A stretch of 63,787 nucleotides of DNA, filler included, from Collodictyon triciliatum (taxonomy: Eukaryota), in the NCBI GenBank assembly GCA_043381765.1. It is 54 parts of 54 records of this genome, joined end to end, with 100 filler letters (N's around TTAATTAATTAA, not from the genome) between each part and the next. Parts side by side here need not be neighbours in the genome. Positions count along the whole stretch, not along the records: positions 14,263 to 15,348 come from JBHJMP010012360.1; positions 15,449 to 16,534 come from JBHJMP010012361.1; positions 16,635 to 17,720 come from JBHJMP010012362.1; 51 more parts are not named here. One strand, 5' to 3'. The translations under genes and the position numbers were made by a program. Shown here one piece after another: positions 14,263 through 44,943 of this stretch. The notes beneath the pieces were generated by a model. The model was not told the origin of the DNA. It worked only from the letters and a program-made list of their open reading frames with translations, and made no database searches. How positions within the stretch are numbered: position 1 is the first letter of the stretch; every line of letters begins with the position of its first letter.

Positions 14263-15050
14263 TTCTTCAGCTTTTCTAGCTTCTTCAGCTTTTCTAGCTT
14301 CTTCAGCTTTTCTAGCTTCTTCAGCTTTTCTAGCTTCTTCAGCTTTTCTAGCTTCTTCAGCTCTTCTAGCTTCTTCAGCTCTTTTGGCTTCTTCAGCTGC
14401 GGTGTCGACCTAGGGTTATGTTAGTTGTGTCCTGTGTTGTGTATGTGGGGGTTGGGGGTGGTTGTGTGCTTACGGGGTCGTAGAGCTGCAGCTTTCGGAT
14501 GTGTTGGTAGTCAGAGGATCCTGTGTTATTCCAGCAGGGGAGATTTGAGATTCCACGCGGGGCTCTCTTTATGTTTACTTTTCCTTCGTACTCAATGTAG
14601 AGTATTTTCAGATTTGTGAGCGCTGTGATCTGTGCTGGAAGCTCCTCCATCTGTGTGTATTGTTGTCAGTCACTTTTTTTTAAACATAAATAGTAATATA
14701 ATATATGAATAAAAACATACCGGATTTACCCAAACCCGAAGTTCTGTGAGACCAGTCAAACACGATATTTGTGCAGGTAGTGATGACAGCTGATTGTTAC
14801 CAAGATACAATTCTTTCAGACCAGTCAAACACGATATTTGTGCAGGTAGCGATGACAGCTTATTGTTTCCAAGATACAATACTTTCAGGCCAGTCAACAA
14901 AAAAACACCAGGCGGCACAGATGACAGATTCTTGTAAAAGAGATTCAGTTTTGTGGAGCTTTTTAGACTGGCAATATCAGGATAACCAGAGAGTATCCGG
15001 ACTTCTTCCAAAAGCGCATCCACTTGGGCAGGTGTGAGATAGTCGGACAT
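14263..15050 (-). CDS. LRR protein with (AEEARK/R)n helical stalk, family copy 1 (3' truncated)
   Basis: Exons 15050-14721, 14650-14474 and 14409-14263 with GT-AG introns. The 23-aa LRRs follow LxxLxLxxNxLSSLPAQISCLTG, then an 18-nt repeat encodes AEEARK. Confidence 0.88.
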
Positions 15051-17663
15051 CTGGACAGATTCCGGCTATGTATAAGTAGACTGGTTGGGTGTCAATACAA
15101 TACACATCATTTATTTGTCTTATGAGTGAACTTGACTATCACACAGGACAGAACTACTCGAGTCAGAACGGTAGGGTTGTGCACACGGAGATCAGAAAGT
15201 ACTTTGAGAGAGAAAAGAAATAAAGCAAGTATTTCGACAAGACGAGATTAAATATCCCGCAAAGGCCGGCGAATTTTTCCGAGAAGACGACTTGTGCAGA
15301 ACTTGTGTGCTTGTGCTTCCTTGGAAATTCACCGGTTCGGGGTTGGCCNNNNNNNNNNNNNNNNNNNNNNNNNNNNNNNNNNNNNNNNNNNNTTAATTAA
15401 TTAANNNNNNNNNNNNNNNNNNNNNNNNNNNNNNNNNNNNNNNNNNNNTTTTTCATTCTTAAGAGGTGATATCGATGGAGGATCTGATAATAAAGAGTTC
15501 ATGGGTTACGACACAGGTACATGTGGTACGGAGTACATCATAACAGAACAGAGCAGAACATAACATAACACATCATAACATAACATAACATAACATAACA
15601 TGACATGACATGACATGACATAACATAACTTAACTTAACATTTAAAAATCATCAAATCAGGCCAAAATATTTTCACAAACCCATCACAAGTGTGGTGGCT
15701 ACAACTTCTTCAAAGTCAATTAGCTTACCAGAATTTCCACTACCATGGATTGTTTTCGCAAAGTCACGGTATTTTTGATTTTCTTTAGCAACGGTTCCGT
15801 CATTAATTAAAGTTGACTTCGATTTCTTATCTGCGTCCCCAGAGAAATTTTTTAAAGCTTCTTTAGCTTTTGTCTCGTCTTTTGATGAAACTGCTTTTGA
15901 AAAGAAGTGCCTGTGAAATGCGGCATAGCTATAACAAGAAAGAATAAGCATAACTCATTGCACGACTTTCAAATGAGAAACGCTTGTATTTCCTCGCCCA
16001 TGTGATACACGCACGCAATTACTGAACCCCACAAGAGCGTGGGATTGATAGAATTATTAGTAGGCACATACGTAATTGTTCCTCTGTTGCCTTTTGAAGA
16101 GCTCATCTATAAAATAATATAATATAATATGTAAGATGAGAAAAGACAACAAATATAATCCAAGATATCAATTCAAGCCTGTCTAAGAGGCATGGCGTTA
16201 CTCCTCATGGTTCATTTATTTATAAAAAAAAAAACATTTAATGGTGTTCTTTCATAACGATTGTTTTTTCATGGCTTCAAAAGTTGGATTATGTTTTCCA
16301 AGTGGAGATACAACTAAATCACCATTAACACAAACAAGTATGGCAGAATCATATATGGAACACATGCTTTTTTCTTTAGACTTTTCAATCCTTTGAATTG
16401 AAGGATCATGACAATAGATATGAATATTAGGATGCAGAAGAAGAAGAAGAAGAAGAAGAAGAAGAAGAAGAAGAAGAAGAAGAAGAAGAAGAAGAAGAAG
16501 AAGAAGAAGAAGAAGAAGAAGAAGAAGAAGAAGANNNNNNNNNNNNNNNNNNNNNNNNNNNNNNNNNNNNNNNNNNNNTTAATTAATTAANNNNNNNNNN
16601 NNNNNNNNNNNNNNNNNNNNNNNNNNNNNNNNNNTTTGTCTTTGTCTTTGTCTTTGTCTTTGTCTTTGTCTTTGTCTTTGTCTTTGTCTTTGTCTTTGTC
16701 TTTGTCTTTGTCTTTGTCTTTGTCTTTGTCTTTGTCTTTGTCTTAGTCTTAGTCTTAGTCTTAGTCTTAGTCTTAGTCTTTTTTTTCCGCTTACTTTTTA
16801 AAAAAACAAAAGGATTCACCATATCCATCGGGTGTACAAAAGGCGAAGTGTTTTGTGGCGATGTGGGCGACCTGTCGCGCCGGTGGGTAACTCACTATCA
16901 TGGATAGTTCACCCACATTCATGCTTTGGATTCGATCTGTACATCACAACTAAGCTACATAACGGTTTATACTCGCACAATGTTGACGGTGGTAATGGCA
17001 TGTACGAAATGTAGAGAGTACGCATTTGTTGGAGGTAAGACCGGAGTGCACAGATTTTGAAGAAAGCCCATCCCATCGCCACACATATTCTTTATGTTCA
17101 TATATTGGCGTATCGCCCAAACATACCATAAATCCTTTAACCTTCTGATAGCTAAAGGGTTGAGAAAAGTTACTAATCATCGCGCAAATGCAGACATTGT
17201 GAACTCAGCTGCACATTTGATGACACTGCGACGAGGCGTTTTATGCTCGTCTGCAGTATACGAGTCATCTGAACATCGAGTAGAGTACCGAGAGCCTTTT
17301 AATGTCCGAATCAAAGGTCAGAGTGGAAGCTGATTCTAAGGAAGCTGGATGATATGATGATTCAGATATTTTTTATTGCAGAATAAAGGGATACATCGTC
17401 ATACTGACACCAATCCACTAATGATAGGACAAGACAGCGAAATCGCAGTTTACTCACCCATCGGAGCGAAAATCTTAGATGAAAGCGATATTGTTTTGGA
17501 AGGAGAGCTTTTTGTACCTGAAAATGAGGAGATGCGAGAGAGACTAATGTTCCGAGAGCAGCAGATGGGCGTTGTGAACTCATTTATACGAGACATGAGT
17601 AGTTTGGGGTATGTCATAGTTGAATGCTCGAATATTAATCGCTTCTGCCTCCGCTATTCCTTT

Positions 17664-43867: not shown

Positions 43868-44943
43868 TTATATATTAATTAGATGGCAATTACACAATCT
43901 GATAGTCTCAATTTCTAGTCGATAGGTTATTCCTTGAGGGTTTGAAAAAACCTTAGCATCCTCTTCAGCTCTTCTTGCCTCTTCAGCTCTTCTGGCCTCT
44001 TCGACTCTCCTGACCTCTTCAGCTCTTCTGGCCTCTTCAGCTCTTCTGGCCTCTTCAGCTCTTCTGGCCTCTTCAGCTCTTCTGGCCTCTTCAGCTCTTC
44101 TGGCCTCTTCAGCTCTTCTGGCCTCTTCGGCTCTTCTGGCCTCTTCAGCTCTTCTGGCCTCTTCAGCTCTTCTGGCCTCTTCAGCTCTTCTGGTCTCTTC
44201 AGCTCTTCTGGTCTCTTCAGCTCTTCTGGTCTCTTCAGCTCTTCTGGTCTCTTCAGCTCTTCTGGCTTCTTCGATTTTCTTGGCTTCCTCAATTATAACG
44301 TAGCCTTCTGTTTTCCTAGCCTCCTGGACTGTTTGTGTGGGGTTGACCTGCTGGCACCGTGTTAGCCTGATAAATGTGTACACTTAAACATTACTTACAG
44401 GGTCGTAGAGTTCAAGCTTTTGAAGGGCCTCCGCAAAGGTCATCGTCATCCAATCGAGTGGTTTTTCCGCATTATCCCAGCAAGGAAGATTTGTGATTCC
44501 ACGAGGTGCTCTACGGATGTTTATCTGTCCTGGTGTCTCGATATAAAGTCTCTTCAGCTTTTTTAAAGCTGTGATTTCTGGTGGAAGCTCTTCAATCTAT
44601 GTTTGGCGTTATGTTAGACACTTGCGCTACCTTCTAAAAGAATTTACTTACTGGGTTTCCATCAATACCAAGACCTTTGAGGCCCGTCAAGCGAGATATC
44701 TCGGTGGGAAGAGAGGAAAGCTGATTGTAGCTTAAGTCAAGTACAGTGAGACCTGTTAGTCGCGAAATGTCTGGCGGAAGGAACGATATCTGGTTGCTAT
44801 ACACCCATAACTGCAACAAACGGGTCAGTATGAAAACTGCCGGTGGAAGAGAAGTCAGATTCTTTGAGCGGAGGTCCAACGACGTGCGGTTTTTTAAGGT
44901 TGCAATATCTGGATCTTCGATTATCTTCCGCAGTTCCTCAAGG
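43868..44943 (-). CDS. LRR protein with (AEEARR)n stalk, family copy 3 (diverged; partial)
   Basis: Introns 44597-44651 and 44348-44398 lie at the same positions as in copies 1 and 2. It shares RAPRGITNLPCW..LYDP and has ~17 AEE(A/T)RR repeats. Confidence 0.85.

Follow-up and report, generated by a model that had tools for sequence, protein, structure and literature searches.

The window analysed here is a stretch of 63,787 nucleotides from the assembly of Collodictyon triciliatum (GCA_043381765.1), and it carries three copies of a gene for a leucine-rich repeat (LRR) protein. These copies very probably represent a real gene family with a selection-type signature on its binding face. The explanation that we favour, with rather more confidence than doubt, is that they are expressed germline paralogues under positive diversifying selection on the LRR concave face, and that they serve intracellular recognition. 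An immune or non-self role is put forward more tentatively, at slightly less than even weight. The family is classed as germline LRR receptors under diversifying selection, a known kind in a new version, and a non-exhaustive literature search found no description of it.

The window consists of 54 separate contigs of 1076-1096 bp each, joined with N/ttaattaattaa spacers, and is not one locus. The contigs come from the short end of the length range in a fragmented eukaryotic assembly. Their ends often lie in microsatellites (GAA, ACATA, AG/GA and A runs, e.g., at 16440-16534, 15540-15620 and 58100-58400), and since contigs of this simple-repeat-rich genome break in microsatellites, the short ones are a biased, non-random sample. 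The analysis covers the three window copies, contigs from public runs and representatives of protein clusters.

Variation is concentrated in the strand patches

Local BLAST of the window located the family in three of the 54 contigs, each time on the minus strand: copy 1 in contig 13 (14263-15348), copy 2 in contig 30 (34411-35493) and copy 3 in contig 38 (43865-44943). Copies 1 and 2 are 87.7% identical across ~900 bp. Copy 3 gave no DNA-level match to them in the same search and is recognisable at the protein level only (~55%).

To compare the copies, the patch was fixed beforehand as the five x positions of the LxxLxLxxN motif (xxLxLxx) in each of five 23-residue units, i.e., 25 positions. 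Between copies 1 and 2, residues differ at 19 of the 25 patch positions and at 13 of the 144 positions elsewhere (Fisher p 5.9e-12), and five of these 13 lie in the loop directly after the last strand. The 169 aligned codons comprise 124 that are identical, 13 with synonymous differences only and 32 that change the residue, mostly through two or three bases. By the Nei-Gojobori method (NG86), the patches have a non-synonymous divergence (dN) of 1.03, against a dN of 0.062 and a synonymous divergence (dS) of 0.137 in the framework. The gene as a whole looks neutral (dN 0.154, dS 0.159) because the two classes average out.

The contrast holds within the strands themselves. Each of the five strand windows spans nine codons. 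Over all five, 20 structural codons (L, L, L/V/I and N) alternate with the 25 x codons, and nucleotide differences amount to 5/60 (8.3%) in the structural codons and 38/75 (51%) in the x codons (Fisher p 8e-8). Noncoding DNA of the same pair differs at 29 of 360 aligned sites (8.1%; upstream 21/227, intron 1 6/69, intron 2 2/64), from which the structural codons are indistinguishable. The framework has drifted at the pace of noncoding DNA. Across complete exons, the mismatches are 44/330 in exon 1 and 26/177 in exon 2.

All five pairs of patch sequences that an earlier note on this DNA had quoted for copies 1 and 2 are present as written. Its description of near-identical upstream DNA, introns and framework captures the low divergence but goes too far in detail, as the upstream DNA is ~91% identical and the framework is not codon-invariant (13 synonymous differences, dS 0.14). 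The note had also stated that copy 3 keeps the intron positions and carries yet another set of patch residues, and this is borne out. More specifically, the patches are again the most divergent part in comparisons of copies 1 and 2 with the distant copy 3 (19/20 and 17/20 differences, against 25/77 and 24/77 elsewhere).

Gene layout

Two phase-0 introns interrupt each of the three copies at matching positions, one following '..NP' and the other following '..LYDP', with GT..AG boundaries throughout, and the visible reading frames are open in all three. An N-terminal helical segment and LRR units 0-3 come from exon 1; the last unit, with a conserved tail, comes from exon 2. Pfam identifies the repeats in exon 1 (LRR_8, E 2e-15; LRR_4, E 4e-12), and Tandem Repeats Finder (TRF) reports a 69-nt period for the LRR region.

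In copy 1, the upstream/5' region (15051-15348), whose aligned part is 91% identical to copy 2, is followed by exon 1 (14721-15050; 110 aa; supported by Pfam LRR_8 and the AlphaFold2 model). Its strand windows are STKLNLFYK in unit 0, with variable x positions (14931-14957), LKVLYLGNN in unit 1 (14862-14888), LKELYLGNN in unit 2 (14793-14819) and LTELRVWVN in unit 3 (14724-14750). Intron 1 (14651-14720; 70 nt, GT..AG) separates it from exon 2 (14474-14650), which holds the last LRR unit and the family-specific cap (RAPRGISNLPCW ... LQLYDP); the strand of unit 4 and the rewritten loop, LKILYIEYEGKVNI, occupy 14570-14611. Intron 2 (14410-14473; 64 nt) then leads to a stalk exon (14263-14409) that is cut at the contig end.

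Copy 2 follows the same plan. Exon 1 (34929-35264; 112 aa) contains strand windows at 35139-35165, 35070-35096, 35001-35027 and 34932-34958, intron 1 (34860-34928) is 69 nt long, and exon 2 (34683-34859) encodes the last LRR unit and the cap, with unit 4 and its loop at 34779-34820. Depending on how the downstream splice is read, intron 2 measures 65 or 134 nt. A third exon (34411-34548), cut at the contig end, encodes a ~30-aa linker and the start of a protein kinase. In copy 3, exon 1 (44652-44942) has its 5' end off the contig and shares 55% amino acid identity with copy 1; it is followed by intron 1 (44597-44651; 55 nt), exon 2 with the last LRR unit and cap (44399-44596), intron 2 (44348-44398; 51 nt), both introns placed as in copies 1 and 2, and a stalk (43960-44272). 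All features lie on the minus strand.

Predicted fold, cap and cellular location

AlphaFold2 was run on exon 1 with an alignment of the three copies only. The model of copy 1 (predicted local distance difference test score, pLDDT, 88.1) alternates strand and helix, and its strands (residues 34-36, 57-59, 80-82 and 103-105) fall within the patches. The predicted structure thus agrees with the claim of the earlier note that the rewritten residues lie on or beside LRR beta-strands. In a Foldseek search with this model, SHOC2 was the top match (TMq 0.73), followed by Leptospira LRR proteins, Rsu1 and lamprey variable lymphocyte receptors (VLRs). With tandem LxxLxLxxNxL repeats in a strand/helix solenoid, the fold class is that of the SHOC2-like 23-residue LRR.

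The LRRs are followed by a family-specific cap with the consensus RAPRGI[ST]NLPCW ... LxLYDP and a single cysteine. In a relative that consists of LRR and cap (P0283), the two are predicted to fold together into a single compact domain (pLDDT 96.4).

At the N-terminus lies a polar helix. A hydropathy scan, a simple Kyte-Doolittle calculation and not a dedicated predictor, revealed neither a membrane helix nor a hydrophobic N-terminus in copies 1 and 2, the copy-2 linker and 12 relatives. The highest 19-residue mean was 1.43 in the window pieces and at most 1.82 in the relatives; in the two highest-scoring kinase-bearing relatives, the peak sits within the kinase core. The scan supports the cytosolic location that had been proposed earlier.

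Stalk and kinase

The stalk varies between copies. With an 18-nt period, it encodes 7.6 copies of AEEARK in copy 1 up to the contig end and 17.4 copies of AEEARR in copy 3, and the downstream part of both genes lies off the contig, past these long stalks. We read the Ala/Glu/Arg-rich stalk as a putative charged single-helix spacer rather than a coiled coil. Single alpha-helices of the ER/K type are long, stable and monomeric, with alternating Glu and Arg/Lys and no hydrophobic heptad.

A single degenerate stalk repeat, VDTAAEARKAD, was found in copy 2 (34549-34617, minus strand), inside the probable intron 2, and no splice donor follows it. The repeat resembles a remnant of a stalk exon that has been lost, and on that reading stalk length in the family would range from none to at least 17 repeats. 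Because no GT follows the relic, intron 2 of copy 2 is likely the 134-nt form (34549-34682), with exon 2 joined straight to the kinase exon. A paralogue transcript in one of the public runs (X2) shows YDP joined directly to the linker exon, as proposed for copy 2.

In copy 2, ~30 residues lie between the cap and the glycine loop of the kinase (GKGGFG), which is located where contig 30 ends. This leaves no room for a Roc-COR region in copy 2, and no NACHT or NB-ARC domain lies between its LRR and kinase. The LRR-stalk-kinase architecture described in the earlier note is not seen in any one copy, since the kinase start is visible only in copy 2, whose likely mRNA has no stalk.

Expression and further members

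Parts of the stretch occur in 20 public runs of 16 studies; none holds the whole, the best share of words being 0.22. Sixteen of them (X5-X20) share 5-10% of the words and do not enter the counts below. Contigs of four runs (X1-X4) were matched to the 1083-bp stretch at a likeness of at least 80%, which yielded 221 contigs in X1, 172 in X2, 54 in X3 and 19 in X4, mostly 90-170 nt long. Up to 13 distinct contigs cover one site within one run. Short contigs of this kind are expected when every patch creates a branch in the assembly graph. Runs X3 and X4 carry the label of freshwater metagenomes.

The genes are transcribed and spliced. Intron 1 of copy 2 is spliced out in contigs of X1 (joint 34859 to 34929, with ends CT..AC on the plus strand), and spliced forms with other patches appear in X1, X2 and X3, the last of which is on record as RNA. 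In X4, presumed to be a DNA run, a 370-nt contig retains both introns. Seven more last-unit patches were recovered (RLDVDVN, EVLFVFNN, LAVCAN, IGLYVSDN, RLDIFLN, SSLYVFDN and LVVCGN), all of which keep the L and V/I skeleton and differ at the x positions. Together with the three window copies, these seven transcripts give ten versions of the last-unit patch in ten sequences. Furthermore, 16 of 22 variant rows in exons 1-2 (from 40 of the 238 rows of public-run contigs) fall in the prefixed patch codons, whose share of the exon bases is 14.6% (p 1e-9).

Some joints in the public-run contigs leave out roughly one further 69-nt unit; as the framework is repeated and contigs can fit two places, they are ambiguous evidence for the number of LRR units. 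The many members in the public-run contigs support the large family proposed in the earlier note, but its count of three hits in 54 contigs cannot be scaled to a family size, because assemblies break at repeated families. Family size is therefore a rough lower bound.

A profile of the exon-2 module matched 702 cluster representatives (E<=1e-3) among 1.84 billion, with whole-module coverage in 30 of the best 150 of the 702. Eight short matches are exon-2 open reading frames (ORFs), and seven of the eight extend past L.LY[DE] into apparent intron read-through, which indicates that the exon structure is conserved in relatives. Pfam analysis of nine longer relatives returned a protein kinase in four (one also with SH3), Roc in one (P0258), RING and NHL in one, a Zc3h12a-type NYN RNase in one and LRRs only in two, and reported no NACHT or NB-ARC domain in the nine. 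The domain content of P0258 suggests that the cap module may also occur in some ROCO proteins.

Four full-length relatives (P0261, P0270, P0297 and P0318) have a kinase domain (PF00069/PF07714, E 1e-37 to 1e-49), and Roc was not found in these four. The nearest solved structures to the P0318 kinase are Dictyostelium Roco4 (E 6e-39), MLK1, RIPK4 and TAK1, which places it in the tyrosine kinase-like (TKL) group. The nearest taxon-labelled ESM Atlas clusters to P0318 are oomycete LRR-kinases, with scores of 0.94.

Other searches returned no close family member. A word-based protein search with exon 1 gave 246 matches among 1240 candidates for longer proteins, all generic LRR with at most 58% identity, and two weak matches among 23 candidates of similar length. 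A metagenome scan with the cap alignment produced 79 pattern matches that reduced to two loci with the short motif only and no LRR, which we judged to be chance.

A proposed mechanism and its alternatives

We propose that the family is an expressed germline multigene family of a freshwater microbial eukaryote. Its proteins combine a short N-terminal helical cap, about five 23-residue SHOC2-type LRRs and the C-terminal cap. In some copies a stalk of variable length comes next, and in at least copy 2 and the four full-length relatives a kinase, probably of the TKL group. The solvent-facing x residues of the LxxLxLxxN strands and the loop after the last strand have been replaced far faster than neutral sites, and the leucine skeleton, helices, introns and flanks have drifted by only ~8%. 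The most likely cause is positive diversifying selection on a ligand-binding concave face, and exchange among near-identical frameworks probably reshuffles the patches. Each member might bind a different intracellular ligand on this face, and binding might switch on the attached kinase. Together, the members would form a repertoire of receptors for recognition inside the cell, with parasite or virus molecules as the most plausible targets.

The interleaving of codons carries much of this argument. Structural codons stay at background between rewritten x codons, which favours residue-level positive selection over local hypermutation or the import of a diverged block. A mutator acting on tracts, a long-diverged block or old balanced haplotypes would each raise the interleaved silent sites, and these are not raised, with the caveat that the sub-test on third positions is weak.

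Several points weigh against this interpretation. In that sub-test, third positions differ at 9/25 x codons and 3/20 structural codons (two-sided p 0.18). The core statistics are pairwise and come from one close pair, copies 1 and 2, which could also be very divergent alleles or belong to different strains. The variant-row test draws on 40 of the 238 rows. Templated exchange of patches from donors with the same structural codons would give the same interleaved pattern, such that recombination and in-place substitution are not separable, and a short-read assembler could combine patches of different paralogues in one contig. Within the window, the kinase is visible only as the start in copy 2, and Pfam gave no hit on these 45 aa alone. 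Finally, SHOC2-type LRRs also serve as ordinary signalling scaffolds.

This last point leads to the first alternative, which we regard as unlikely: the proteins might be signalling scaffolds diversified for endogenous partners, as in SHOC2, Rsu1 and LRRK-type proteins, with patch changes reflecting sub-functionalisation after duplication. SHOC2 and Rsu1, the best structural matches, are both cytosolic scaffolds, and LRR TKL kinases are common in protists without a known immune role, as far as the available part of the source extends (PMC3019232). Partners co-evolving inside one genome would be an unusual setting for a patch dN ~7 times the framework dS and for so many expressed variants. Moreover, the sensor module is joined in turn to a kinase, Roc, RING-NHL and an NYN RNase, a combinatorial pattern described, in the consulted portion of PMC4986451, as typical of immune receptor families.

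It is distinctly unlikely, in our assessment, that the patches are ancient and kept by balancing selection, with gene conversion or unequal crossing-over erasing differences in framework, introns and flanks. The low neutral divergence would then reflect concerted evolution and not recent duplication, a reading to which we assign the same small weight. Some observations fit such homogenisation. SSLPAQISCLTGL units are 93-100% identical at the nucleotide level within and between copies 1 and 2, as is the framework of units 1 and 2, where unit 2 of copy 1 and unit 1 of copy 2 reach 100%. In addition, off-register BLAST matches between copies are as strong as in-register ones, and concerted evolution of highly conserved repeats in fungal NLRs offers a precedent in the part of the literature consulted (PMC4986451). 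Units 0, 3 and 4, by comparison, are conserved by position and have not been homogenised with units 1 and 2 (framework identity 0.20-0.59), which together make some unit-level exchange or recent unit duplication likely. Old patches should nevertheless have carried their structural codons with them, yet these are at background (5/60 nt, 3/20 third positions), and the synonymous and noncoding differences are scattered across the entire alignment of copies 1 and 2.

Very improbable is a dedicated germline or somatic mechanism that writes the patches by targeted hypermutation or, as in lamprey VLRs, by cassette copying. The density of change would suit such a mechanism, with 51% of patch nucleotides differing beside neighbours at 8%, two or three changes in 14 of the 25 patch codons and a different last-unit patch in every sequence compared; identical frameworks would also supply homology for templated copying. 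The transition:transversion ratio differs as well (23:6 in noncoding DNA, 14:24 in the patches), a shift that also fits multiple selected replacements. No base preference was seen in patch changes, either in the copy 1/2 pair (AG 15, AT 12, GT 11, AC 9, CG 8 and CT 3, with all bases involved) or in the public-run contigs, and the A-specific or C-specific bias of diversity-generating retroelements or deaminase-driven mutation is missing. This base spectrum rules out both of these mutation types, and the window contigs contain no template repeat. Mutation acting on whole tracts would not have spared the structural codons between the x codons, which are at background. The window copies are complete, intron-bearing, open germline genes with their own patches that need no assembly step, and the 54 contigs include neither an incomplete 'germline' copy nor a cassette array.

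We give an equally slight chance to a related possibility, namely that the patches are written and not only selected, with members exchanging or copying short strand cassettes by way of identical frameworks, possibly somatically, and a clone expressing more variants than its germline encodes. If that were the case, it would amount to a VLR-like anticipatory repertoire in a unicellular eukaryote, with an LRR-cap sensor wired to a kinase, a Roc GTPase, a RING-NHL ligase or an NYN RNase.

That the patches are unreal, being chimeras or consensus collapses of a repeated family, is hardly credible. It is true that the contigs measure only ~1.08 kb and are among the short ones of a fragmented assembly, that exact runs of up to 76 nt (76, 59, 48 and 45 nt) are common to copies 1 and 2 beside an internal exact repeat of 47 nt, and that 28 of the 221 X1 contigs fit two places. 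Errors, however, would not preserve open frames, L and V/I at structural positions and splice sites in all three contigs. The frameworks also recur, joined to additional in-frame patches, in independent public runs of other studies, in part as spliced RNA. Chimerism could alter which patches co-occur, not that patches exist.

Other contigs of the window

Contig 4 (3567-4652, plus strand) contains one open frame with at least seven WD40 repeats (Pfam WD40, E 1e-71), the N-terminal part of which lies off the contig. Four compared 45-aa units are 80-87% identical at the nucleotide level and differ at few positions, which has the look of the conserved repeats in fungal NLRs. This array may represent a second hypervariable repeat family in the organism.

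A 309-aa open frame on contig 32 (36778-37704, minus strand) has no Pfam hit and no close relative in IMG/VR. Its nearest ESM Atlas clusters are major capsid proteins of virophages (Sputnik-type) and giant viruses, with scores of 0.97 and recognition below the usual level. The assembly may thus include virophage- or polinton-like DNA, which we note as a lead only.

No Pfam family was found at E<=0.01 for three further minus-strand frames, on contig 42 (48582-49658; 359 aa), contig 27 (31176-31943; 256 aa) and contig 24 (27611-28390; 260 aa). Contig 25 (28493-28867, plus strand) carries part of a fatty acid synthase alpha subunit of the fungal type; the fragment is 66-67% identical to unnamed environmental proteins, 62-66% to those of oomycetes and 58-60% to those of fungi. 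Taken with the oomycete LRR-kinase clusters near P0318, it hints weakly at stramenopiles, although any other lineage that has this synthase would fit as well. The most GC-rich contig is contig 7 (7138-8225; GC 0.53), where three open plus-strand frames run over a degenerate tandem repeat with the peptide motif HYAGIRRSLLHT and variants. An Rfam scan of the window gave no match, hence no rRNA.

Comparison with known systems

The ways in which free-living protists recognise viruses and parasites are still poorly understood. The clean contrast between binding-face codons (~50% nucleotide difference) and their neighbours (8%) suits the study of how a recognition surface evolves on a fixed scaffold, and the family could offer a natural starting point for the design of LRR binders. 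As members are transcribed in two public runs labelled as freshwater, the question can move to cultures and environmental data.

The structural links point to the SHOC2/ROCO/LRRK proteins. SHOC2 is the closest match of the LRR model and Roco4 that of the P0318 kinase, and Roc occurs in some relatives. Unlike the family described here, SHOC2 and LRRK2 are single conserved genes and not hypervariable families. Judged by copy 2 and the four kinase-bearing relatives, the family does not belong to the ROCO/LRRK proteins, which are defined by a Roc GTPase and COR between LRR and kinase.

With lamprey VLRs, which are represented among the structural matches, the family shares a short LRR solenoid with a hypervariable concave face on an invariant framework, followed by a stalk. 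Lamprey VLRs are secreted or glycosylphosphatidylinositol (GPI)-anchored, carry LRRNT and LRRCT caps rich in cysteine and arise by somatic assembly of cassettes. The germline genes described here are complete and, by contrast, encode cytosolic proteins with a helical N-cap, a single-Cys C-cap and an attached kinase.

Plant-specific LRR repeats have 24 residues, against 23 in the SHOC2-type unit. Unlike plant NLRs and receptor-like kinases, the family has no NB-ARC domain, signal peptide or membrane helix, and its LRR domain is N-terminal and very short (about five units). By the hydropathy scan, it does not belong to the receptor-like kinases, whether plant LRR-RLKs or oomycete transmembrane LRR-TKL kinases, as neither a signal peptide nor a membrane helix is present. 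What it shares with plant NLRs and receptor kinases is an excess of replacements at the same strand positions and large germline families (textbook knowledge; PMC4986451, in part). Oomycete LRR-TKL kinases likewise combine a TKL kinase with LRRs. The 16 LRR kinases of the Phytophthora kinome are transmembrane proteins with extracellular LRRs, unlike the family here, and the available part of that report mentions neither hypervariability nor a cap module (PMC3019232).

Fungal NLRs provide a further parallel, as far as the consulted text of PMC4986451 goes. Their WD40, ANK and TPR repeats consist of near-identical units with a few hypervariable, selected positions, and units are exchanged within and between paralogues. 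As here, the sensor repeats are combined with alternative effector domains. The fungal proteins have no LRRs and do have NACHT or NB-ARC, the opposite of the present family on both counts. The fungal threshold for high internal conservation (>85% identity over >=100 aa) is not reached in the visible copies either, since only units 1 and 2 (46 aa) are conserved in this way.

The closest published case is the LRR-ROCO and LRR-kinase set of the brown algae Ectocarpus and Saccharina, described here from the accessible parts of PMC3341825 and PMC11378527. In these algae, each LRR is encoded by its own 72-nt exon and diversity arises through exon shuffling and alternative splicing, whereas four LRR units share one exon here, there are only two introns and copy 2 lacks Roc-COR. 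The cap and the Ala/Glu/Arg stalk are found in the present family and are not mentioned for the algal proteins in those parts of the two papers. Positively selected sites lie on the concave face in the algae, with a site omega of ~5.9 in Ectocarpus ROCO LRRs, compared with ~7 here, a value that is the ratio of patch dN to framework dS in one pair. Both sets comprise cytosolic LRR proteins of a eukaryote that is neither plant nor animal, both join the LRR to Roc or a kinase, and for both an immune receptor role is proposed without functional proof. Large germline LRR repertoires under diversifying selection are established in plants and animals and proposed for brown algae; the present family would add a cytosolic LRR-kinase form that is compact and has a capping module not described before, which in relatives is fused to several other effectors.

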